Origin: Candidatus Wildermuthbacteria bacterium
GTDB taxonomy: Bacteria; Patescibacteriota; Minisyncoccia; Minisyncoccales; UBA10102
Direction of reading: 5' to 3'
NCBI GenBank assembly: GCA_016181405.1
Contig: JACOZJ010000002.1
Coordinates: 138,608 to 202,607, forward strand
Length of the DNA stretch: 64,000 nt
In this document: piece by piece, positions 5,446 through 43,419 of the stretch
How the letters are laid out: each line of letters starts with the position of its first letter
Numbering within the stretch: the first letter of the stretch is position 1
Notes under the pieces: generated by a model
What the model was told of the DNA's origin: nothing
What the model saw: only the letters and a program-made list of their open reading frames with translations
Database searches by the model: none
Translations under genes and position numbers: made by a program

Positions 5446-6597
5446 CTATGGAATCCGGAAAGGATTGTTTCCGGACTTTGCTTCAGATATCATTTGTCCC
5501 ACAAGCAGGTTCCAACTCACAAAGTTTGGAGCCGCCAACGGTTTTCCGGTGTCTGCGTTATAATTCTCGTGCATCCCACCGGACCTTTTGATATCTTCCA
5601 AGCAAAGCCTGGAAATAATCACTGCGAGGCGTTGCGCCTCTCGCTGAAATCCGTAATTCAAAAGCGCATGCATTGTCAAATAATTTACGATCGGCCACAC
5701 GGGTCCCTGCCAGTTTGAATAAGGTTTTATCGTATTCGCTTGGTTATAATCTGGATCGTCCTTCGACAAACATCGTACCCCATATCTTGCCCAAAGGTGT
5801 TTTGGATTCAAGATATATCGCTTTACCATCTGCCTTCCCCGTACTTGAGGAACTATGCCAGCCCATAAAGGTATGACGTTCGAGTAGGTAACACGTTTCA
5901 CGAATTCCCCTGTTTTTCGATCGCGATTATAGAAGATTTCGGCTTCTTTATCCCAAAGATGTTTAAGAATTGCTCTCTTCAGCATTTCTGCTTTTTCCCG
6001 ATATTTCTGGACATCTTTTCTCTTTTTTAAGCGCTTGGCAAGAAATGCAAGAGCAAGATATTCCCGATAAAGAAATATATTAAGATCTGCGGCTAAAATG
6101 CTTCCGTTTTCATAACCATGCACCGCAAGATTATTGTCAGCGCCAGATTCCATTGCGTCATACCAACACCCCAATCCAAACTCTTTATCGAAGTAAACTT
6201 TCTCGCGATATTCTACTGCCTTTTTAAGCTTCTCCCAATACGAAAGTACCCAAAAGAAATCTTCTAGATATTTCGATGCAAAATAGCATCCCTGCGCAAG
6301 AAACGGCTTTATATGCTTCAATCTTCGATCGACCCCATCAGGAGTCAGGAGACCCGGCGTAAACCCAGTCAGCTGAACTTTTTCCAAATAATTTAACGCC
6401 CAGTTCTTCAGATAAATTGCTTCGGAAGGGATTTGTGAAGCTAACGCCATTCCTACAAAGAAACCGTCCCAATCCCATTGCTCTGCATACGGCCCTCCTG
6501 GCACAAGATAGTCGTGTTTAAGGAAACCTTGCGCGCGCCGCTTCACAAGAGCTTTCCTGTAATCAAGCTCTTTTTGCAATTGTTGTTCAAAATTCAT
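5446..6597 (-). CDS. (alpha/alpha)6-barrel glycoside hydrolase, GH63/GH37-like
   Basis: WDWDGFFVGMAL, AMESGADNN, NWQGPVWPIVNY and GMHENYNADTGKPL motifs. The start is moved to ATG 6597 (MNFEQQ), giving an 11-nt overlap with the upstream gene. Confidence 0.65.
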   Translation of the reverse strand: MNFEQQLQKELDYRKALVKRRAQGFLKHDYLVPGGPYAEQWDWDGFFVGMALASQIPSEAIYLKNWALNYLEKVQLTGFTPGLLTPDGVDRRLKHIKPFLAQGCYFASKYLEDFFWVLSYWEKLKKAVEYREKVYFDKEFGLGCWYDAMESGADNNLAVHGYENGSILAADLNIFLYREYLALAFLAKRLKKRKDVQKYREKAEMLKRAILKHLWDKEAEIFYNRDRKTGEFVKRVTYSNVIPLWAGIVPQVRGRQMVKRYILNPKHLWARYGVRCLSKDDPDYNQANTIKPYSNWQGPVWPIVNYLTMHALLNYGFQREAQRLAVIISRLCLEDIKRSGGMHENYNADTGKPLAAPNFVSWNLLVGQMISEAKSGNNPFRIP

Positions 6598-7405
6598 GCT
6601 TTTTTGTCGTTTGTCTTCTTTCGGGGAAACAAATCTGATTACGCACATTGCACCACTTGCCTTCAAACATATACCCTGCAAGCTTACCTTCTTTTGCCAA
6701 CTTCGGGAATATATCTTTTTCAAGCGACGCAATTTTCTCTTTGGGAATGTAATCGAAAATTTCCGGACTAAAACAGAAAATACCCGCTGAAATCACCCGC
6801 GAAACCCCTTCCTTTTCTTTTGGCTTTTCTGCAAAGGCAACAATTTTCTCTCCCTTCATCTCCACCGCCCCGTATAAAGAGGGGTCCTCAATGGAAGTTA
6901 AGGCAACCGTAGCCGTCGCATCTGCTTGTGCGTGATAGGCGGCAAAATCCACAAGGTCGAGTTCCACCACTACGTGGGAATATAATACAAAGAATAAATC
7001 GCCCCCCACAAATTTCTTTGCCGACAATACGGCGCGCGCAGTCCCAATTTTCTCTTCCTCCTGCAGCTGGTATGTAATTTTTAAGCCATACTTTGAGCCA
7101 TCGCCTAAAGTTTTTTGTGCTTCTTTCTCACCCTTATGGAGCGAAAGGACAACTTCTTTTATGCCGTGCGTTCGCAAAAGCTCTAACCCATGCTCAATTA
7201 CCGGCTTGCCTTCGAAAGAAGTAGTACAAACAAAATCTTTATGCCCTGCGATAATAAGGGCTTTTTGTACATTGGCGCCAAGCGCTTGGTTCAAAAAATA
7301 CTCGATGGCGTGCGAACGGTTCCGAATAGTCTTCCCGTCTATCGCGCGGTCAAGTCTTTTTAAGATGTCGTTTTTGAGGGTTATGGCAATTTTACTGCGC
7401 TGCAT
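6587..7405 (-). CDS. ribbon-helix-helix (CopG/NikR-like) domain fused to a sugar-phosphate nucleotidyltransferase-like domain
   Basis: The N-terminus SKIAITLKNDILKRLDRAIDGKTIRNRSHAIEYFLNQAL has an RHH pattern. The remainder has an NTP_transferase-like layout (GTARAV, EKDIFPKLAKEGKLAGYMFEGKW), but the GxGTRL signature is degenerate (IIAGHKDF). ATG 7438 lies inside the -10 box, so I use 7405. Confidence 0.6.
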   Translation of the reverse strand: MQRSKIAITLKNDILKRLDRAIDGKTIRNRSHAIEYFLNQALGANVQKALIIAGHKDFVCTTSFEGKPVIEHGLELLRTHGIKEVVLSLHKGEKEAQKTLGDGSKYGLKITYQLQEEEKIGTARAVLSAKKFVGGDLFFVLYSHVVVELDLVDFAAYHAQADATATVALTSIEDPSLYGAVEMKGEKIVAFAEKPKEKEGVSRVISAGIFCFSPEIFDYIPKEKIASLEKDIFPKLAKEGKLAGYMFEGKWCNVRNQICFPERRQTTKKHEF

Positions 7406-7461: not shown

Positions 7462-7474
7462 CCCCCTTTTATTC

Positions 7475-7502
7475 TTGACTAGTTATCCACAGGTGATAGT
7501 AT
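7475..7502 (+). promoter_or_regulatory. sigma70-type promoter (divergent)
   Basis: TTGACT-N16-TAGTAT. The -10 overlaps ATG 7501. Confidence 0.5.
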
Positions 7503-9999
7503 GAAAAGCAATCTCCGGGAGCCTATCCCGGACTCTATGCAACAAACAAAATCTCCTTCTGAACCTCAAGACGACTTACGCAATAAGCATCTCCTTGTAG
7601 TAAACTCCGGATACCGAAGAAAAGAATTTATTCTCAAGCGTATCCAAGAACTTGGCTGCAATATTATCCTCTTGAACAAAGAGAGGAATTGGGCGCAAAA
7701 ATACGTAGATTCTTTTATTCTTGCGGACACAAACAATCACTCAGAAAGCCTCGAAGCTGTAAAAAAATACGCCGAGCATAGCCCTATTGATGGCGTTATT
7801 ACTTTTTGGGAAGACGACGTGCTGCTTTGCGCCAAAATCGTGGATATGCTTGGTCTCCCCGGTATCCCCTACCGAGTAGCGAGAGTGGCAAGAAATAAAT
7901 ATCTTTTCCGGGATTTCTGCAAAGAGGCCGGGCTCCCAACACCTCAACACCGTACTATTTCCTCGCAGGCCGATGTTGATTTCGTGATAGAACACTTTAA
8001 CTTTCCGGTTATAGCCAAACCAGTATACGGCTCAAGTTCGGCTTTAGTAGTGAAGATAGAGAAGAAACGAGATCTCCAAAAAATAATCCGGTATATTTCA
8101 GAGAACATTTCAGAAAAAATGGAATCTGCTTTGATGGCAGGATCTCAAATCTTTGTAGAAGAATATCTAGACGGACAAGAGGTGGATATTGATATGCTCG
8201 TCCAAAATGGAAAGGTAAAATTTCACTCCATCACCGATAACGAACCGACCGACGAGCCGTTCTTCATTGAAGTCGGAGACTCCATACCCTCAAGTCTCTT
8301 GGAAGATAGCCAGCAAAAGCTGTTCGAAATGGCATCGGAAACGCTTGAAAAACTGGGAATCCAGCAGGGATGTATACACTTTGAAGCAAAGTGGACCAAG
8401 AGAGGCCCTTTCCCCATTGAGGTAAACCTTCGCATGGGCGGAGACTATGTGCACTCTTTGGTGAAAGGATGTTGGGGTGTGGATCTTGTGGAATACGCGG
8501 CAAAAATCGCTTTGGGCTTATATATTAAGCCAGAAAAACCTACTCAACCCTTACAGTATCTTAGGGGACAGTGTTTTCTTTCCGATTATTCTGGCGTTCT
8601 TGTCGAATTAGACGTCGACGAAGAACTCTACAAAAAACAGTATTTCGAACAGTTCTACTTTCTGAAAGAAGTGGGAGACCCGGTACTTGTACCTCCCGAA
8701 GGCTATGAATACTTAGGATGGGTAGTCGTGAAAGGAGAAAGCCCTGTGGTCGCGCAAAATAATCTAGAGGAGGCGCTCGAATGTGTCCGCTATACCGTGG
8801 CGAAATATCATCCCACTTCCTCGGTAGGTAAAACTATCAGGAAAACCCCTCTCTCCTTAGCTTCCTTTGCACGAGAACAAATTAAAGCTTCCGCATCTGT
8901 AGAAAGAGTGAAAGCCTTCAAAAAAGAAGGGCTCCACGTGGGAGTACTCTGCAATATCTATACCAAGGAAACTTCGCAAAATCCTGTGGAGAAAGAAGCA
9001 GAAGAAGATATTACTACCTCCGCGATTCAAATAAAAAACGCTCTTGAAAAGAAAGGGCACACCGTGGAGCTCTTCAACATGAATCAGCTTCTCCCCACAA
9101 TAAACCGTCTCGCGAGAAGAGACGTGGATATTGTGTTTAATGCTTGCGAGCGAATCAACAACTCCAGTCTCCTCAAACCCCATGCTTCGGCAATATTGGA
9201 TATTTTAAATATTCCCTATACAGGATCCAACCCGGTCGCGAGAGCCATTAGCATTGATAAAATCATAACAAAGAAAATTCTTAAGTATCACGGCATCCCC
9301 ACTCCGGAATTCGACTATCTTTTTTCTGTTGACGACAAAATTAATCCCGAACTGGAATACCCCCTTATTGTAAAGCCCGCAAACACCGACGACAGCATCG
9401 GAATCACTCAAAAATCAGTAGTTACCAACGAACAAAAACTCTATGCGCAAGTAAAAGAAATCATCACGGTATACAAGAGGCCAGTGCTTGTGGAAGAGTT
9501 CATCCAGGGGTCAGAGCTCGACGTGGGAGTTATTGGAAACCGCGGCAACATCCGTGTACTCCCCATCGAACGCACTCTCTTCAATAAACTACCACGCGGA
9601 AAATGGGGAATTTATTCTTACGAAGACAAATGGGGAGAAGGAAATATTCATGATTACTTCACAGTTGAATCGCCTGCTAGGATCCCCAAAAAGCAAATGC
9701 AGCTTGTTTCGGAAATCGCCATAGACGTATTCAACGCGCTCGGCTGCCACGACTATGCAAGAGTCGAGATGCGCATGGACGAACAAGGCAATATCTATGT
9801 CATCGAGCTGAATGCCCACCCCACCCTGGAAGAAGGAAGCTATTTTGGAAGAGTCGGGAAAAAACTCGGGCTTTCATTCGGCGATATTCTGCAGGAAATT
9901 ATTGAAGCAGCCGCGGGACGCTACGAAAACAAACCTCCTTTTTATCATCTTCAAGGAGGTATCGAAATCCCTCTTGAGACTATTCCACCGACAAAGTAA
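7501..9999 (+). CDS. fusion of two ATP-grasp ligase modules (L-amino-acid-ligase-like N-half, D-Ala-D-Ala-ligase-like C-half)
   Basis: N-half: FPVIAKPVYGSSSALV, IFVEEYLDGQEVDIDMLV, IEVNLRMGGD. C-half: YPLIVKPANTDDSIGI, VLVEEFIQGSELDVGVIG, YARVEMRMDEQGNIYVIELNAHP. The start may be ATG 7537 if the promoter call is right. Confidence 0.75.
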   Translation: MKSNLREPIPDSMQQTKSPSEPQDDLRNKHLLVVNSGYRRKEFILKRIQELGCNIILLNKERNWAQKYVDSFILADTNNHSESLEAVKKYAEHSPIDGVITFWEDDVLLCAKIVDMLGLPGIPYRVARVARNKYLFRDFCKEAGLPTPQHRTISSQADVDFVIEHFNFPVIAKPVYGSSSALVVKIEKKRDLQKIIRYISENISEKMESALMAGSQIFVEEYLDGQEVDIDMLVQNGKVKFHSITDNEPTDEPFFIEVGDSIPSSLLEDSQQKLFEMASETLEKLGIQQGCIHFEAKWTKRGPFPIEVNLRMGGDYVHSLVKGCWGVDLVEYAAKIALGLYIKPEKPTQPLQYLRGQCFLSDYSGVLVELDVDEELYKKQYFEQFYFLKEVGDPVLVPPEGYEYLGWVVVKGESPVVAQNNLEEALECVRYTVAKYHPTSSVGKTIRKTPLSLASFAREQIKASASVERVKAFKKEGLHVGVLCNIYTKETSQNPVEKEAEEDITTSAIQIKNALEKKGHTVELFNMNQLLPTINRLARRDVDIVFNACERINNSSLLKPHASAILDILNIPYTGSNPVARAISIDKIITKKILKYHGIPTPEFDYLFSVDDKINPELEYPLIVKPANTDDSIGITQKSVVTNEQKLYAQVKEIITVYKRPVLVEEFIQGSELDVGVIGNRGNIRVLPIERTLFNKLPRGKWGIYSYEDKWGEGNIHDYFTVESPARIPKKQMQLVSEIAIDVFNALGCHDYARVEMRMDEQGNIYVIELNAHPTLEEGSYFGRVGKKLGLSFGDILQEIIEAAAGRYENKPPFYHLQGGIEIPLETIPPTK

Positions 10000-10880: not shown

Positions 10881-10920
10881 GGAAAAAAAGAAAGAGGGCT
10901 CGTGTTTGCTACACGAGCCC
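10881..10920 (-). terminator. intrinsic terminator
   Basis: Minus strand GGGCTCGTG-tagcaaa-CACGAGCCC followed by TCTTTCTTTTTTT. Confidence 0.7.
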
Positions 10921-11232
10921 TGAAGTTAGGGATGTCTGGATGAGACTTGCCAATTGCGCGAGCCCCTCCTTCATAGAGGAAGGATGCAACCGCACAATCG
11001 CGCAAGGCTTCGCACTGCGCGGAAACCAAGATGGAGATTCTCCCTCTGGAACATCTGGAATAATGGCGGCGAATTTCTCTTTCCACTCCGCAGGCAATGC
11101 TTCCTCGCCTCCCTTCTTAAGAACGATCCTCGGCACTCCCATTGTCATGGATTGGATTTCATGCAAGAGACGAACCCAAGCCTCCCCTCTATTTCTCCAG
11201 TCGTCTAAGGAGAAAACTATATGGGTTTCCAT
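10909..11232 (-). CDS. hypothetical protein (107 aa)
   Basis: METHIVFSLDDWRNRGEAW..., with ATG after a GGGGGGGG run. GC-rich; no family recognised. Confidence 0.5.
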   Translation of the reverse strand: METHIVFSLDDWRNRGEAWVRLLHEIQSMTMGVPRIVLKKGGEEALPAEWKEKFAAIIPDVPEGESPSWFPRSAKPCAIVRLHPSSMKEGLAQLASLIQTSLTSGLV

Positions 11233-11320: not shown

Positions 11321-11343
11321 AAAAAACTCCCGTGTGTCGGGAG
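11321..11343 (-). terminator. attenuator terminator, module A
   Basis: Minus strand CTCCCG-acaca-CGGGAG-TTTTTTATT. Confidence 0.7.
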
Positions 11344-11373
11344 GTGGTTTTTTGATACGTTTTACTGCTCTTA

Positions 11374-11478
11374 TTACATACGTTTATCTTTCAACCTCCC
11401 ACACACGAAAAAATAGCCCATTGAGGCATTATCAGCTTTGTATTGGTATGCTCTATGCGTGTTGGATAGTGTGTTCAT
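11374..11478 (-). CDS. candidate leader peptide A (34 aa)
   Basis: MNTLSNTHRAYQYKADNASMGYFFVCGRLKDKRM. The ATG is 13 nt after the -10 and has no SD. Codons 24-29 (11407-11394) pair with 11345-11331, which overlaps the terminator. Confidence 0.45.
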   Translation of the reverse strand: MNTLSNTHRAYQYKADNASMGYFFVCGRLKDKRM

Positions 11479-11491
11479 GCTCGAATTCGTT

Positions 11492-11521
11492 ACTATACTC
11501 CCCGACACTATGGCATGTCAA
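11492..11521 (-). promoter_or_regulatory. sigma70-type promoter, module A
   Basis: Minus strand TTGACA-N18-TATAGT. Confidence 0.6.
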
Positions 11522-11547
11522 GAAAGATTTCCACAAGGGATATACTA

Positions 11548-11578
11548 GGGCTCGCTCTCTACTGAAGAGAGCGAGCCC
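11548..11578 (-). terminator. 13-bp GC-rich hairpin after the 67-aa ORF (no clear U tract)
   Basis: GGGCTCGCTCTCT-loop-AGAGAGCGAGCCC. Confidence 0.4.
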
Positions 11579-11594
11579 TTGCTCACCGGCTTGT

Positions 11595-11964: not shown

Positions 11965-12004
11965 TGTGTGCTCTGCGCTGACTATATTCAGCGCATCGAA
12001 TGAG
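11965..12004 (-). repeat. R1: conserved 5'-leader hairpin element (copy 1 of 2)
   Basis: Minus strand TCATTCGATGCGCTGAATATAGTCAGCGCAGAGCACACA. It shares the TCGATGCGCTGA...CAGCGCAGAGCACA core with 12358-12396 and sits about 20 nt before an SD and start codon. Confidence 0.6.
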
Positions 12005-12357: not shown

Positions 12358-12396
12358 CATGTGCTCTGCGCTGCTGATGTTCAGCGCATCGAGTGA
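12358..12396 (-). repeat. R2: conserved 5'-leader hairpin element (copy 2 of 2)
   Basis: Minus strand TCACTCGATGCGCTGAACATCAGCAGCGCAGAGCACATG, directly followed by TCAGGAGGCGGGTC-ATG. Confidence 0.6.
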
Positions 12397-12427: not shown

Positions 12428-12456
12428 AACAAAAGCGGCCTCCTTTAGGAGGCCGC
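12428..12456 (-). terminator. attenuator terminator, module B
   Basis: Minus strand GCGGCCTCC-taaa-GGAGGCCGC-TTTTGTT. Confidence 0.75.
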
Positions 12457-12483
12457 CAGTTAAAGAATTTTAAATGTTTCTCT

Positions 12484-12561
12484 TTAGCAAAAGGCCTCCC
12501 GGTTCATGGGGCTAATAATGCTAATAATTTCATTTACCAAAGAGGTATTCTGCATACTCAT
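12484..12561 (-). CDS. candidate leader peptide B (25 aa, Ile/Ser repeat)
   Basis: MSMQNTSLVNEIISIISPMNREAFC, with ATT ATT AGC ATT ATT AGC. The ATG is 6 nt after the -10, so it is leaderless. GGAGGCC at 12499-12493 can pair with the terminator 5' arm. Confidence 0.45.
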   Translation of the reverse strand: MSMQNTSLVNEIISIISPMNREAFC

Positions 12562-12567
12562 AGAAAT

Positions 12568-12595
12568 ATACTATCAAGATAAAATATATTGTCAA
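12568..12595 (-). promoter_or_regulatory. sigma70-type promoter, module B
   Basis: Minus strand GGGGTTGACA-N16-TAGTAT. Confidence 0.65.
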
Positions 12596-12615: not shown

Positions 12616-12692
12616 TGGTGAGGCGAGTTGGACTCGAACCAACACCCGTGCGACCCCTCAAGTCGCTGCTCACCTAGATGAGCTATCGCCTC
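12616..12692 (-). tRNA. atypical tRNA, anticodon GAG (Leu CUC/CUU by the standard code), short variable region, CCA encoded
   Basis: Hand-folded cloverleaf: GAGGCGA TA GCTC ATCTAGGT GAGC A GCGAC TTGAGGG GTCGC ACGGGT GTTGG TTCGAGT CCAAC TCGCCTC A CCA. Confidence 0.7.
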
Positions 12693-12706: not shown

Positions 12707-12958
12707 CTACCCCTGAACCTCAACGGGTAGCTTGTTGAGGGTTTGCACGAAGTCTTCGACAATTCGCCGCACGTACTCCCGGTACTGGAGTACTTCATCG
12801 GGGCTGATCACCTGTTGCCCCTGTGCCGTGAGCGTAATGCTAGATTGGAAATCTGTTGATGGATCTCCGGAGTCTCGTGTCAGGATAGCGGTCGCCGTCG
12901 GAACCTTGCCGATCTCTGCGGTTACCTTAAGCTGATCGACTCTCCACTGCTCGTGCAT
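12707..12958 (-). CDS. hypothetical protein (83 aa)
   Basis: GGGAGG 6 nt before the ATG. MHEQWRVDQLKVTAEIGKVPTATAILTRDSG.... The stop is 14 nt before the tRNA 5' end. Confidence 0.5.
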   Translation of the reverse strand: MHEQWRVDQLKVTAEIGKVPTATAILTRDSGDPSTDFQSSITLTAQGQQVISPDEVLQYREYVRRIVEDFVQTLNKLPVEVQG

Positions 12959-13049
12959 ATCAAACCTCCCTTGAATGTGCTTGCGCCTTGAGCGCACTGC
13001 GGATTCACAACTAGATTTGCGAACCCAATTATAGACTCAAGAAATGGCT

Positions 13050-13716: not shown

Positions 13717-13751
13717 GGAAAACAAAGAACCTCCCTTTGGCTGGGAGGTTC
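13717..13751 (-). terminator. attenuator terminator, module C
   Basis: Minus strand GAACCTCCC-agccaaa-GGGAGGTTC-TTTGTTTT. Confidence 0.75.
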
Positions 13752-13773
13752 GTTGAAATATCGAAGCTTTATT

Positions 13774-13875
13774 TTACAAATTTCTTCCAGCCAAATTAAG
13801 GGGTTTCGTAACACCCAACAAGACAACCAAGACAATCATGATATTCTGAATTTGGCTGAATAAATTCTGCCGCAT
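13774..13875 (-). CDS. candidate leader peptide C (33 aa, Ile/Leu/Val run)
   Basis: MRQNLFSQIQNIMIVLVVLLGVTKPLNLAGRNL. The ATG is 13 nt after the -10. TTTGGCTGG (13795-13787) is complementary to CCAGCCAAA (13744-13736) in the terminator. Confidence 0.5.
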   Translation of the reverse strand: MRQNLFSQIQNIMIVLVVLLGVTKPLNLAGRNL

Positions 13876-13888
13876 AAATCTTTGTTTG

Positions 13889-13917
13889 AATATACACGAC
13901 CCAAAGAATGCTGTCAA
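13889..13917 (-). promoter_or_regulatory. sigma70-type promoter, module C
   Basis: Minus strand GGGGTTGACA-N17-TATATT. Confidence 0.7.
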
Positions 13918-13992: not shown

Positions 13993-14193
13993 TCATTGGG
14001 GTTTCTCCAGCGCAGTGGTACTCCTCACCAGAATAGGGTGTCGAATGGACTTGCCGTCAGTGCTGATTTGTTCAGCATCCACCACGACATAGGTACCGCG
14101 GTCTGCGGAAATAATTCCTCGGTAGAGTATCCCACTGATTTGGAACTCAACCATCTTGCCAACGAGCGATGATACTGGAATGGCAGTCGCCAT
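13993..14193 (-). CDS. Sm-like (LSm/SmAP-type) small protein (66 aa)
   Basis: AGAAGGAGGAG before the ATG. VSSLVGKMVEFQISGILYRGIISADRGTYVVVDAEQISTDGKSIRHPILVRS aligns by eye to the archaeal SmAP Sm1/Sm2 pattern (G..fRG.l..fD...n.vL.DAEE..dG.....vliRG). Confidence 0.5.
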   Translation of the reverse strand: MATAIPVSSLVGKMVEFQISGILYRGIISADRGTYVVVDAEQISTDGKSIRHPILVRSTTALEKPQ

Positions 14194-14700: not shown

Positions 14701-14729
14701 AACAAAAAACCCTCCCGGCTGGGAGGATT
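14701..14729 (-). terminator. attenuator terminator, module D
   Basis: Minus strand AATCCTCCC-agcc-GGGAGGGTT-TTTTGTT. Confidence 0.75.
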
Positions 14730-14766
14730 TTTGTTTCGGATTTAAGCTTGTTCTCTTTTGCTTTTC

Positions 14767-14844
14767 CTACTGTAAATCTCCCAACCTTAGTAAGGGGGTA
14801 AAGAAAGCAAAAAAGAAAAAGTTTTTCGATGCGCTATACTGCAT
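14767..14844 (-). CDS. candidate leader peptide D (25 aa, Phe run)
   Basis: MQYSASKNFFFFAFFTPLLRLGDLQ (TTT TTC TTT TTT GCT TTC TTT). GGTTGGGAGATT (14786-14775) pairs with AATCCTCCCAGCC (14729-14717), the terminator 5' arm. Confidence 0.55.
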   Translation of the reverse strand: MQYSASKNFFFFAFFTPLLRLGDLQ

Positions 14845-14859
14845 ATTCTGTATACCGGC

Positions 14860-14888
14860 AGTATATACCAACAAGCGTTTCGTGTCAA
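14860..14888 (-). promoter_or_regulatory. sigma70-type promoter, module D
   Basis: Minus strand GGGGTTGACA-N17-TATACT. Confidence 0.7.
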
Positions 14889-15015: not shown

Positions 15016-15330
15016 CTACTCCCAAAGCGGAAAAAAACGGAAGCAAAGCGTACCATTGTCTGCAATCCAGAAGGGCAGGATACGCGACCAGAAAATCAGC
15101 TCCTCAAGAATCATATCTTCGGTTTCCAGAGAAAAAAGCTGCCGAAGGGCCTCCCGCACTTTCTGCTGAAAACCCCTCTGCCATATCTCTTCCAGCTCAT
15201 TCGGAAACTGCCGCGTAAAGTCCAAAACCTCCTGCGGAATCTCCATCCATCGCGGCGGCCACTCACAGTGCCGACCCCACGTTTCATCCCTTGTACCGGC
15301 GTTGCGATGCAACAGAAGCCCCGTTTCCAT
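15016..15330 (-). CDS. hypothetical Trp-rich protein (104 aa, 7 Trp)
   Basis: AAAGGAGCGGGGAG directly before the ATG. METGLLLHRNAGTRDETWGRHCEWPPRWMEIPQEV...IFWSRILPFWIADNGTLCFRFFPLWE. Confidence 0.5.
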   Translation of the reverse strand: METGLLLHRNAGTRDETWGRHCEWPPRWMEIPQEVLDFTRQFPNELEEIWQRGFQQKVREALRQLFSLETEDMILEELIFWSRILPFWIADNGTLCFRFFPLWE

Positions 15331-15390
15331 CTCCCCGCTCCTTTTGTGCTGTTCGCTGGGAAATTGCGAGAATCTCCCAACCTGCAACAC

Positions 15391-15421
15391 AAACAAAAAA
15401 CCTCTGGCAAAGTCCAGAGGG
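15391..15421 (-). terminator. attenuator terminator, module E
   Basis: Minus strand CCCTCTGG-actttg-CCAGAGG-TTTTTTGTTTG. Confidence 0.75.
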
Positions 15422-15450
15422 TAAAATGCAAGAAAAGAATTTAAGTATGT

Positions 15451-15540
15451 TTACGCGTCAAACTTGGACTTTGCTTTTAGATATTGCAAAGCCCACCACC
15501 ATACTCGCACGCTATTTTTTATTTGAGGCGCGCTCTTCAT
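15451..15540 (-). CDS. candidate leader peptide E (29 aa, WWW)
   Basis: MKSAPQIKNSVRVWWWALQYLKAKSKFDA (TGG TGG TGG at codons 14-16). The ATG is 6 nt after the -10, so it is leaderless. GCAAAGTCCA (15474-15465) is complementary to TGGACTTTGC (15416-15407) in the terminator. Confidence 0.55.
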   Translation of the reverse strand: MKSAPQIKNSVRVWWWALQYLKAKSKFDA

Positions 15541-15546
15541 ATGCTC

Positions 15547-15575
15547 TATATTACTTTTATACGTAGTGTTGTCAA
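15547..15575 (-). promoter_or_regulatory. sigma70-type promoter, module E
   Basis: Minus strand TTGACA-N17-AATATA. The -35 overlaps the pepP-like stop codon. Confidence 0.6.
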
Positions 15576-43230: not shown

Positions 43231-43258
43231 GAAAAAATCTGGCTTTTGGCTGCCAGAT
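43231..43258 (-). terminator. intrinsic terminator inside the greA leader
   Basis: Minus strand ATCTGGC-agccaaaa-GCCAGAT-TTTTTCATC, ending about 14 nt before the greA ATG. Confidence 0.6.
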
Positions 43259-43309
43259 TTATTGATTCGTATTGATATGCTGATGTGCTACCGAGTCAAT
43301 AAATCTGGC
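43252..43309 (-). promoter_or_regulatory. alternative (antiterminator) hairpin of the greA leader
   Basis: GCCAGATTTATTGACTCG (43309-43292) pairs with CGAATCAATAAATCTGGC (43269-43252). This 18-bp stem with one mismatch sequesters the terminator 5' arm. Confidence 0.55.
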
Positions 43310-43391
43310 CACTAGTTTGAAAAATGGCTTTTACCAAGGGGATATATGAAAATTGAAACCTTGTATCAATACTGTTCATAGGGACATTTCT

Positions 43392-43419
43392 ATTGTATAA
43401 GACCAAACAAGTTTGTCAA
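43392..43419 (-). promoter_or_regulatory. sigma70-type promoter for greA
   Basis: Minus strand TTGACA-N16-TACAAT. A second TTGACA-N16-TACAAT lies at about 43509-43540. Confidence 0.6.

Follow-up and report, generated by a model that had tools for sequence, protein, structure and literature searches.

A leader-like module upstream of an orphan gene

Whether a short promoter-proximal open reading frame (ORF) without a run of any residue could control an orphan gene as a leader-peptide attenuator, and which signal it would read, is the question raised by module A. This module is found at 11521-11321 of the window (the whole 64,000-nucleotide stretch of Wildermuthbacteria DNA that was analyzed); all window features given with coordinates lie on the minus strand. 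A preliminary description had placed a promoter, TTGACA-N18-TATAGT, at 11521-11492 and a start codon at 11478, and both are present at these positions. The sigma-70-type promoter (11492..11521) is composed of a -35 element TTGACA (11521-11516), an 18-nt spacer and a -10 element TATAGT (11497-11492) and agrees with the consensus at 11 of 12 positions. Transcription is predicted to start at approximately 11485. The ATG is located 13 nt 3' of the -10 element and no Shine-Dalgarno sequence was seen in front of it, so that the module A mRNA would be near-leaderless. The leader ORF (11374..11478) contains 34 codons, specifying the peptide MNTLSNTHRAYQYKADNASMGYFFVCGRLKDKRM, and ends with TAA (11376-11374).

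The transcript can be divided into four segments. Two alternative sequences were obtained for segment 1. Segment 1a (UCCAACACGC, 11457..11466) corresponds to codons 5-8 (S-N-T-H) and emerged from the terminator-forced fold, the fold of a 95-nt prefix and the duplex energies, while segment 1b (C-CAA-UAC-A, 11439..11446), which comprises the last base of the Y11 codon, the Q12 and Y13 codons and the first base of the K14 codon, was identified by RNAalifold consensus. Segment 2 (11394..11407; RNA CGUGUGUGGGAGGU, DNA CGTGTGTGGGAGGT) covers codons 24-29, forms the 5' strand of the antiterminator and can be extended to approximately 11411 through weak U-G/U-A pairs. Segment 3, the target (11331..11345; RNA ACCUCCCGACACACG, DNA ACCTCCCGACACACG), can pair either with segment 2 to form the antiterminator or with segment 4 to form the intrinsic terminator CTCCCG-ACACA-CGGGAG-T6 (11321..11343). 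The leader stop codon falls into the spacer between segments 2 and 3, five codons past the arm. The complementarity between arm (11407-11394) and target (11345-11331) reported earlier was confirmed as 14 bp with one bulged G, and the target was found to run from the 5' arm CTCCCG through the loop ACACA into the 3' arm (first 2 nt), as had been described, and to include 2 nt 5' of the terminator as well. Module A was missed by a strict exact-run detector, as the bulge divides the pairing into 7+7. Rfam searches of 11321-11521 yielded no match, neither at the gathering threshold nor at E values up to 10, with riboswitch, T-box and protein-binding leader families included.

The presumed regulated gene, geneA (10909..11232), encodes a 107-aa orphan protein. 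It is preceded by a G8 Shine-Dalgarno-like run (11242-11235), and a terminator with an 11-bp stem and a T-rich tail (10895..10921) closes the geneA unit just upstream of tatD. The 95 nt that separate the module A terminator from the geneA ATG contain no promoter-like site; together with the synteny of the leader-gene pair in both genomes compared (the window and L037, see below), this makes geneA the likely target. A comparison of geneA with 5.8 billion clusters returned the self-match only, and the two contigs carrying geneA are identical to the window. A HMMER scan of 1.84 billion representatives detected one credible relative, P0123 from the locus L037 (E = 7e-7, 39% identity over the full length), and a profile built from geneA and P0123 did not find a third member. 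The full-length alignment with P0123 and its same position in the island indicate that geneA is a real gene. Neither Pfam nor NCBIfam provided a match for geneA, and its AlphaFold model (pLDDT 50.6) was unusable. Matches of a geneA profile to the PDB were rejected as spurious, as they reflect a 19-residue repeat in designed TIM barrels. The likeness of geneA to ORFs located between a module and tatD in L004 and L024 was also dismissed (BLASTP E = 0.33 and 0.01 over 9-33 residues); these two ORFs do not align with each other.

Competing helices and folding energies

The best duplex between arm and target of module A (2:3) has an energy of -18.3 kcal/mol. Dinucleotide shuffles of the upstream transcript gave a mean of -8.3 (sd 2.2) and 4 of 2000 attained the observed value; chance does not account for the 14-bp pairing. 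The minimum-energy fold of the full-length transcript is the antiterminator at -33.5 kcal/mol, compared with -31.4 kcal/mol when the terminator is forced, which makes the two states nearly isoenergetic. Among the five modules (A-E) of the island described below, module A has the weakest terminator hairpin (-8.9 kcal/mol, with -11.2 to -20.6 kcal/mol for B-E) and is the only one whose full-length minimum-energy fold is the antiterminator, in line with its earlier ranking as the strongest terminator/antiterminator competition of the five. Folding of the whole transcript is unremarkable (z-score -0.93), and the signal of module A lies in the specific competing helices and not in overall stability. 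As a 1:2 anti-antiterminator, segment 1a is the arm's strongest partner in the window (-12.6 kcal/mol), and the helix between segments 1b and 2 is weak at -6.4 kcal/mol. As the antiterminator is thermodynamically favored in the window even without a ribosome, read-through could be the default state of module A.

The five-module island and its attenuator family

Module A is the last of five promoter/short-ORF/antiterminator/terminator units that are arranged head to tail between a pepP-like M24 peptidase gene (16690-15572) and tatD (10864-9980). It is preceded by modules E (15575-15395, leader MKSAPQIKNSVRVWWWALQYLKAKSKFDA), D (14888-14702, leader MQYSASKNFFFFAFFTPLLRLGDLQ), C (13917-13721, leader MRQNLFSQIQNIMIVLVVLLGVTKPLNLAGRNL) and B (12595-12429, leader MSMQNTSLVNEIISIISPMNREAFC). 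The tatD gene of the window is 85% identical to tatD of the MAG RIFCSPHIGHO2_01_FULL_48_27b, and a protein identical to the TatD of the window is on deposit from a Wildermuthbacteria MAG. Modules B-E form 1:2, 2:3 and 3:4 helices and their leaders contain the runs IISII, IMIVLVVLL, FFFFAFF and WWW. Folding of B-E followed the classical four-segment logic: segment 1, which overlaps the codon run or lies next to it, pairs with segment 2, whose alternative partner is the 5' arm and loop of the terminator. The only Phe_leader match in the Rfam scan was located on the terminator of module B and scored 23.5 bits, against a cutoff of 55 bits.

Related modules were collected from other loci (designated by L numbers), which resulted in a family set of 23 non-redundant modules from 13 loci. 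The defining features of the family are location on the same strand in the interval between a pepP-like gene and tatD, a promoter close to the consensus whose -10 element is followed by an ATG at a distance of 4-18 nt, an ORF that extends into an arm composed of [anti-loop]+GGGAG, and a terminator that has CUCCC in its 5' arm. Module A has all of these features in common with the 22 other modules. The ORF beginning at the first ATG reaches the antiterminator arm in 22 of 23 modules, while other frames are open over the same span in 9 of 46 cases. The distance from the -10 element to the ATG is 4-18 nt in 22/23 modules, which suggests that the mRNAs of the family are leaderless or near-leaderless.

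Several sister leaders are located in front of genes that match their codon runs. The D (Phe) leader precedes a prephenate dehydratase gene (PDT+ACT; 5.9e-50 in L001) in L001, L030 and L037, and a separate Phe-run leader (…KYFSFFFFF…) is found upstream of PDT in L035. The F/W/Y leader (X leader, MSLQLRYSFWYFTFT…) stands directly before the DAHP synthase gene (1.3e-78) in L001, and an E-type leader (…KTAWWWVLQT) stands before TrpE (3.4e-89) in L002. The arm and terminator of the E-type modules co-vary, reading GTCCA/TGGAC in the window, GCCCG/GGGC in L002 and GCCCA/TGGGC in L021. Two leaders of L032 comprise a V/L/I leader before a stand-alone ALS_ss_C gene and a Met-run leader (…FMMMGMAMS…) before a SAM_HAT_C-like gene, the latter assignment resting on a sub-threshold match (23.3 vs 25.5 bits). 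As sister leaders are found directly upstream of their cognate genes, the local family is predicted to consist of genuine ribosome-mediated attenuators. Judged from their sequences, the Phe, Trp, aromatic, branched-chain and Met leaders show classical ribosome-coupled attenuation to be operating, or to have operated recently, in Wildermuthbacteria.

The enzymes themselves have been lost repeatedly. The window contains no pheA, DAHP synthase or trpE gene; L001 and L030 keep pheA, the X leader and DAHP synthase, and the window is devoid of all three. ORF D2 of the window is a homolog (E = 7e-12) of a 63-aa gene located behind the X leader in L037 and behind DAHP synthase in L030, which implies that the lineage of the window deleted pheA, the X leader and aroF and kept the D leader. 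The DAHP synthase gene was lost behind an intact X leader in L037, only LeuA_dimer or ALS_ss_C domains are held by L032 and L037, and decay of the L021 Trp leader has left a single W. Leaders appear to outlive the enzymes, and in the window genome the five intact leaders would have no targets other than small orphan genes. This is most extreme in module A, which has no codon run and an orphan target, yet has been kept together with geneA across deep divergence.

An ortholog of module A in a second genome

The Wildermuthbacteria contig L037 (GCA_016188315.1) carries the same island in the order peptidase, D, pheA, X leader, C, LeuA_dimer, B, two small genes, module A ortholog, geneA homolog, DUF6922, AbiEii and tatD. 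The ortholog (L037 5778-5969) lies upstream of the only geneA homolog found, and the position of module A after the B operon and before tatD is the same as in the window. Its promoter reads TTGACT-17-TATTTT with an extended-10 TG, and the ATG follows 4 nt after the -10 element; the -35 block TTCTTGAC is identical in both sequences. The leader ORF encodes MVMVTSLFHTTFQYKNAVKKTLAVFICWR and the arm is GCUGGAGGUAG, in which the core GGAGGU is kept. The stem of the terminator CTCCCG-CTCCAA-CGGGAG-T5 is identical to that of the window, with a loop CUCCAA and a U5 tract, and the part ACCUCCCG of segment 3 is identical as well. Pairing of segments 2 and 3 amounts to -15.3 kcal/mol. The leader frame is open from the ATG into the arm, and its stop codon is located inside the arm, compared with five codons past the arm in the window. 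The preliminary description had named loss of the frame in relatives that retain both helices as the pattern pointing to a protein- or ligand-controlled RNA switch; L037 keeps the promoter, ATG, frame, arm, terminator and 2:3 pairing.

Between the His codon and the arm, the leaders of the window and L037 can be aligned gap-free. Of the 22 codons aligned in the leader frame, 7 specify the same residue (H, Q, Y, K, F, C and R) and six of these (H, Q, Y, K, F and C) do so via different synonymous codons. The other two frames contain 3 identities (0 synonymous) and 5 identities (2 synonymous). Column shuffling gave p = 0.0375 for 7 or more identities and p = 0.009 for 6 or more synonymous identities, values that stem from one ortholog comparison. 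The conserved residues form the pattern H, [Y/F]-Q-Y-K and F-x-C-x-R.

The L037 transcript folds like a textbook attenuator, with a long 1:2 helix whose 5' strand consists of the F-Q-Y-K-N-A codons, a 2:3 alternative and a terminator that forms. RNAalifold consensus folding of the two orthologs revealed a shared 1:2 helix whose 3' strand is the 5' half of the arm; in L037 it is part of a helix of -19.8 kcal/mol. This shared helix contains two compensatory pairs, A-U/G-C and C-G/U-A, so that the arm compensates for both third-position differences, CAA/CAG and TAC/TAT. In register, 100% of the cells pair, compared with 35-64% when the partner strand is slid; a shuffle control (129/500) is without power at two sequences. 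Because a single ortholog is available, the covariation and coding statistics are weak. Segment 1a (UCCAACACGC in the window) is not conserved in L037 and the unpaired leader regions are poorly conserved between the two sequences.

An nhmmer search with module A against 29 loci recovered identical copies only; L017 and L018 are 100% identical to the window. The closest genome (L001/L022/L030) is without modules A and E. The tatD-proximal module of L033/L034 (…NAGFYGGRG…) was considered as a further ortholog, which was not supported: the alignment shows no more than a common layout, and the module was not retrieved by the covariance model R1. The sole extra match of R1 (L032, E ~0.02) is a different, Met-run leader.

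Proposed mechanism and alternative explanations

Module A probably functions as a ribosome-mediated (leader-peptide) transcription attenuator that gates the orphan geneA. It combines a promoter and a short ORF with a terminator and an antiterminator that share an arm, a 1:2 helix in the translated region and, in one ortholog, conservation of the frame. The earlier reading as a leader-peptide attenuator of unclear specificity gains support from the frame and helices kept in L037, from the cognate leaders of the family and from the ORFs that reach the arm in all family modules but one. We infer the transcription start, translation of the ORF, coupling between ribosome and polymerase and the nature of the signal from the arrangement of these elements. 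Transcription would start a few bases 5' of the ATG and produce a near-leaderless mRNA. During smooth translation of the leader, the ribosome would cover segment 2 and reach the stop codon in the spacer between segments 2 and 3; with segment 2 blocked, the CUCCCG/CGGGAG hairpin would form ahead of U6 and transcription would end at approximately 11321. A ribosome stalled at roughly codons 3-20 would melt the 1:2 helix and leave segment 2 free to capture segment 3 in the 14-bp helix, which would prevent the terminator and allow RNA polymerase to enter geneA.

Three other explanations have to be considered. The strong promoter and the terminator bracket an sRNA-sized unit, and the terminated RNA of approximately 165 nt could itself be the product of a free-standing small gene, either as a trans-acting sRNA, with a CCUCCC motif that might be capable of binding Shine-Dalgarno sequences, or as an mRNA for a functional 34-aa peptide; read-through into geneA would then be incidental and the long helix would be the RNA's own structure, as its rank as full-length minimum-energy fold might suggest. 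The peptide sequence also seems constrained beyond what a regulatory run would require, the Sinorhizobium molecules rnTrpL and peTrpL act in trans (PMC6614838, PMC7298713), and a role in trans could explain why leaders were retained in the window genome although the enzymes of the sister leaders are gone. However, geneA lacks a separate promoter-like site and is located behind the module A unit in both genomes, segment 3 is shared by two exclusive helices in 23 modules, some of them before pheA, trpE or DAHP synthase, and no Rfam sRNA family was matched. Such a function, which would be compatible with attenuation in cis, is considered unlikely as the main role of module A. The competing helices, being well defined, could also belong to an RNA switch in which a protein, a tRNA or a small ligand is bound directly by the leader RNA and the ORF is incidental. 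While the missing codon run would fit, and the overlap of the conserved block with the compensated helix means that amino-acid conservation is possibly in part an RNA constraint, this explanation is very improbable: the frame is kept in L037 with six identical residues encoded by different codons in the leader frame only, the first-ATG ORFs of the family run into the arm almost without exception and sister modules have textbook cognate runs. Moreover, Rfam riboswitches, T-boxes and protein-binding leaders gave no match at E up to 10, and the unpaired leader regions are poorly conserved, unlike a ligand pocket.

It could further be argued that module A is a decaying relic of an ancestral amino-acid attenuator whose operon was deleted in the course of genome reduction and whose codon run was lost, so that no useful regulation remains. 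The island is visibly losing genes in the window, L037 and L032, the single W of the L021 leader illustrates decay, and module A has neither a run nor a target other than an orphan gene. Against this, the promoter retains 11 of 12 consensus positions, and the ORF, arm and terminator have remained intact in the window and in L037, between which geneA has diverged to 39% identity. Preservation of the unit at this level of divergence points to long-term purifying selection on leader and geneA together, and decay is regarded as quite unlikely.

Amino-acid specificity

Analyses of codon rarity and amino-acid enrichment of the module A leader revealed nothing significant and no run of any residue, which agrees with the earlier statement that the peptide has no single obvious run. 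The most frequent residues are Tyr, Asn and Ala (3/34 each), with Tyr and Asn each contributing 3.4% of the proteome, and aromatic residues account for 14.7% of the leader vs 9.7%. Only positions 11 (Y/F), 13 (Y/Y) and 24 (F/F) are conserved as aromatic between the window and L037. The preliminary description had put forward Y11, Y13 and Y22 or the N-T/N-T pairs as candidate signals. Among the tyrosines, Y13 is conserved, Y11 is replaced by F in L037 and Y22 is not conserved; the N-T pairs are not conserved in L037 either. The proposal that Tyr is the sensed amino acid is weakly favored by the conservation of Y13 and by the location of the Y11 and Y13 codons in the conserved 1:2 helix; Tyr is not enriched. 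The Tyr and N-T candidates map onto the two alternative segment 1 sequences, 1b and 1a, respectively. The conserved YQY lies 10-13 codons before the arm, which is farther than the run in any of the 22 other modules, where the run ends 0-6 codons before the arm.

The leader is devoid of the cognate codon run that marks attenuators of amino-acid biosynthesis operons (trp/phe/his/thr/leu/ilv type), and no link of geneA to amino-acid metabolism, whether biosynthesis, transport or charging, was detected. Limited charging of Tyr or aromatic tRNAs, read at the conserved [Y/F]-Q-Y codons in segment 1, can be put forward tentatively as the signal of module A. Otherwise the module may provide a broader read-out of translation speed or depend on a sequence-specific effect of the nascent peptide.

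Relation to known attenuation systems

Among the closest mechanistic counterparts of module A are the classical enterobacterial attenuators (trpL-trpE, pheL-pheA, hisL, thrL and ilvL; Rfam Trp_leader and Phe_leader RF01859). Like them, module A has a short ORF close to the promoter, four segments with exclusive 1:2, 2:3 and 3:4 helices, candidate regulatory codons in segment 1 and an intrinsic terminator that precedes the first structural gene. The sister modules of the island resemble the classical attenuators further in their F, W and I/L/V runs and, in relatives, in their location before pheA, trpE and DAHP synthase. Module A differs in that it has no sequence or covariance-model similarity to them, no Shine-Dalgarno sequence, no run, a 107-aa orphan target and a CPR host. 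By its predicted layout, module A is a member of a known mechanistic class that resembles trpL/pheL and is placed outside every Rfam leader family.

Leader ORFs without a run of one amino acid are known, for example, from pyrL and mgtL, in which terminator or antiterminator is selected by the rate of leader translation and not by starvation for a single amino acid. The signals are UTP-dependent polymerase pausing in one case and proline or Mg2+ in the other. Module A shares the absence of a single-amino-acid run with both, whereas a signal is identifiable in pyrL and mgtL only.

Near-leaderless organization also has a precedent. To our knowledge, a canonical terminator/antiterminator with a U tract is not part of the mycobacterial short-ORF attenuators. 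Mycobacterial leaderless polycysteine sORFs control downstream operon genes (bioRxiv 10.1101/834739; Shell et al., PMC4633059). As predicted for module A, these ORFs have no Shine-Dalgarno sequence, and their start codons coincide with the transcription start or lie at most a few bases from it. They differ from module A in their Cys runs and Cys-related genes, whereas module A has no run and a clear intrinsic terminator.

CPR bacteria (Patescibacteria) are believed to be incapable, for the most part, of amino-acid synthesis, and almost nothing is known of their gene regulation. No paper on leader-peptide attenuation in CPR bacteria was found in the searchable literature and we know of no study that has examined transcription-translation coupling in these organisms. 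If functional, the leaders would be amino-acid sensors of a host-dependent organism and would constitute evidence for transcription-translation coupling in CPR bacteria. A more far-reaching view, which at present is doubtful, holds that module A senses the nascent peptide or the rate of translation through H-x-x-[Y/F]-Q-Y-K...F-x-C-x-R and not starvation for one amino acid. More broadly, the lineage would have kept leaders after deletion of the enzymes as stand-alone sensors of host-supplied amino acids, driving geneA, the Trp-rich E1 and isolated LeuA/ALS regulatory domains. A model for leaders that persist after loss of the cognate enzyme is offered by the Sinorhizobium trpL attenuator, whose terminated RNA rnTrpL and leader peptide peTrpL have functions beyond those in cis (PMC6614838, PMC7298713); the peptides and RNAs are unrelated to those of module A.

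Leader-peptide attenuators and their genes

Modules B, C, D and E, which lie on the minus strand of the window in the island between the pepP-like gene and tatD, are textbook leader-peptide attenuators. Module B (12429-12595) carries an Ile leader with the sequence EIISIIS, and the leader runs of the other three are IMIVLVVLLGV (module C, 13721-13917), FFFFAFF (module D, 14702-14888) and WWW (module E, 15395-15575). In the window genome these modules are followed by small ORFs only, none of which gave a Pfam match; the genes that stand behind the same leaders in relatives are pheA, DAHP synthase, trpE, ALS_ss_C and LeuA_dimer genes.

The small gene D2 behind module D (13996-14192, minus strand) is a homolog of a 63-aa gene (50% identity, E = 7e-12), which is found behind the X leader, a further F/W/Y leader of the island, in the related locus L037 and behind DAHP synthase in L030. 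This homology shows that the window lineage has lost pheA, the X leader and aroF by deletion. Gene C3 behind module C (12707-12964, minus strand) weakly resembles the LeuA_dimer protein of L037 at that protein's N-terminus (E = 5e-4). E1 (15020-15331, minus strand), which follows the Trp leader, encodes a small Trp-rich protein with 7 W in 104 aa. Its homolog in L021 (238-567) is 47% identical, and in the Trp leader of that locus WWW has decayed to a single W and the RNA helices were kept.

Further leaders were detected in the relatives. A Met-run leader in L032 (5724-5883; MQNKQLFMMMGMAMSFTKADVFA), whose antiterminator arm is a perfect 10 bp, precedes a 243-aa protein (5891-6622) with a just sub-threshold match to a C-terminal SAM hydroxide adenosyltransferase domain. 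In L002 a Thr-run leader (7471-7613; MGKFVNNKAAKTTTTSLLWKRFVGL) has an arm of 13 nt and a terminator. It is one more leader that looks cognate and stands before a non-biosynthetic gene; the 190-aa ORF downstream of it has no Pfam match.

Accessory genes and other RNA elements of the island

Stand-alone amino-acid-binding regulatory modules without a catalytic partner (Trp_repressor, LeuA_dimer and ALS_ss_C) occur in the islands of relatives (L032 772-1098, 3369-3887 and 4366-4656; L035 853-1104; L037 4237-4632). They are either the remains of former genes or sensors that stand alone. Since toxin-antitoxin and defence-type genes (DUF6922+AbiEii, BrnT, CopG, PIN) also collect in relatives' copies of the island (L037 6435-7329; L033 88-390, 1417-1979 and 6688-7104), the region upstream of tatD behaves as an accessory-gene hotspot.

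A repeated hairpin element, GATGCGCTGAA-N-CAGCGCAGAGCAC with the stem TGCGCTG/CAGCGCA, stands before the small genes B1 and B2 behind module B (12361-12390 and 11968-11997, minus strand). It is conserved downstream of the B-type leaders of L001 and L019 and may act as a second regulatory RNA or as an operator. The island also contains a tRNA-Leu(GAG) gene (12616-12692, minus strand), flanked by the C operon and the promoter of module B, which has the same place in L001. A GC-rich 14-bp hairpin without a U tract, AGGGCTCGCTCTCT…AGAGAGCGAGCCCT, is located between gene B3 and the promoter of module A (11545-11583, minus strand) and accounts for a weak sub-threshold RsaA match on the plus strand.

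Outside the island, a sixth unit of the same outline was found on the minus strand at 43237-43419, comprising TTGACA-16-TACAAT, a 27-codon ORF, an 11-nt arm and a terminator. The ORF encodes MNSIDTRFQFSYIPLVKAIFQTSGQIY, a peptide with no amino-acid run, and greA (43217-42738) follows directly downstream.
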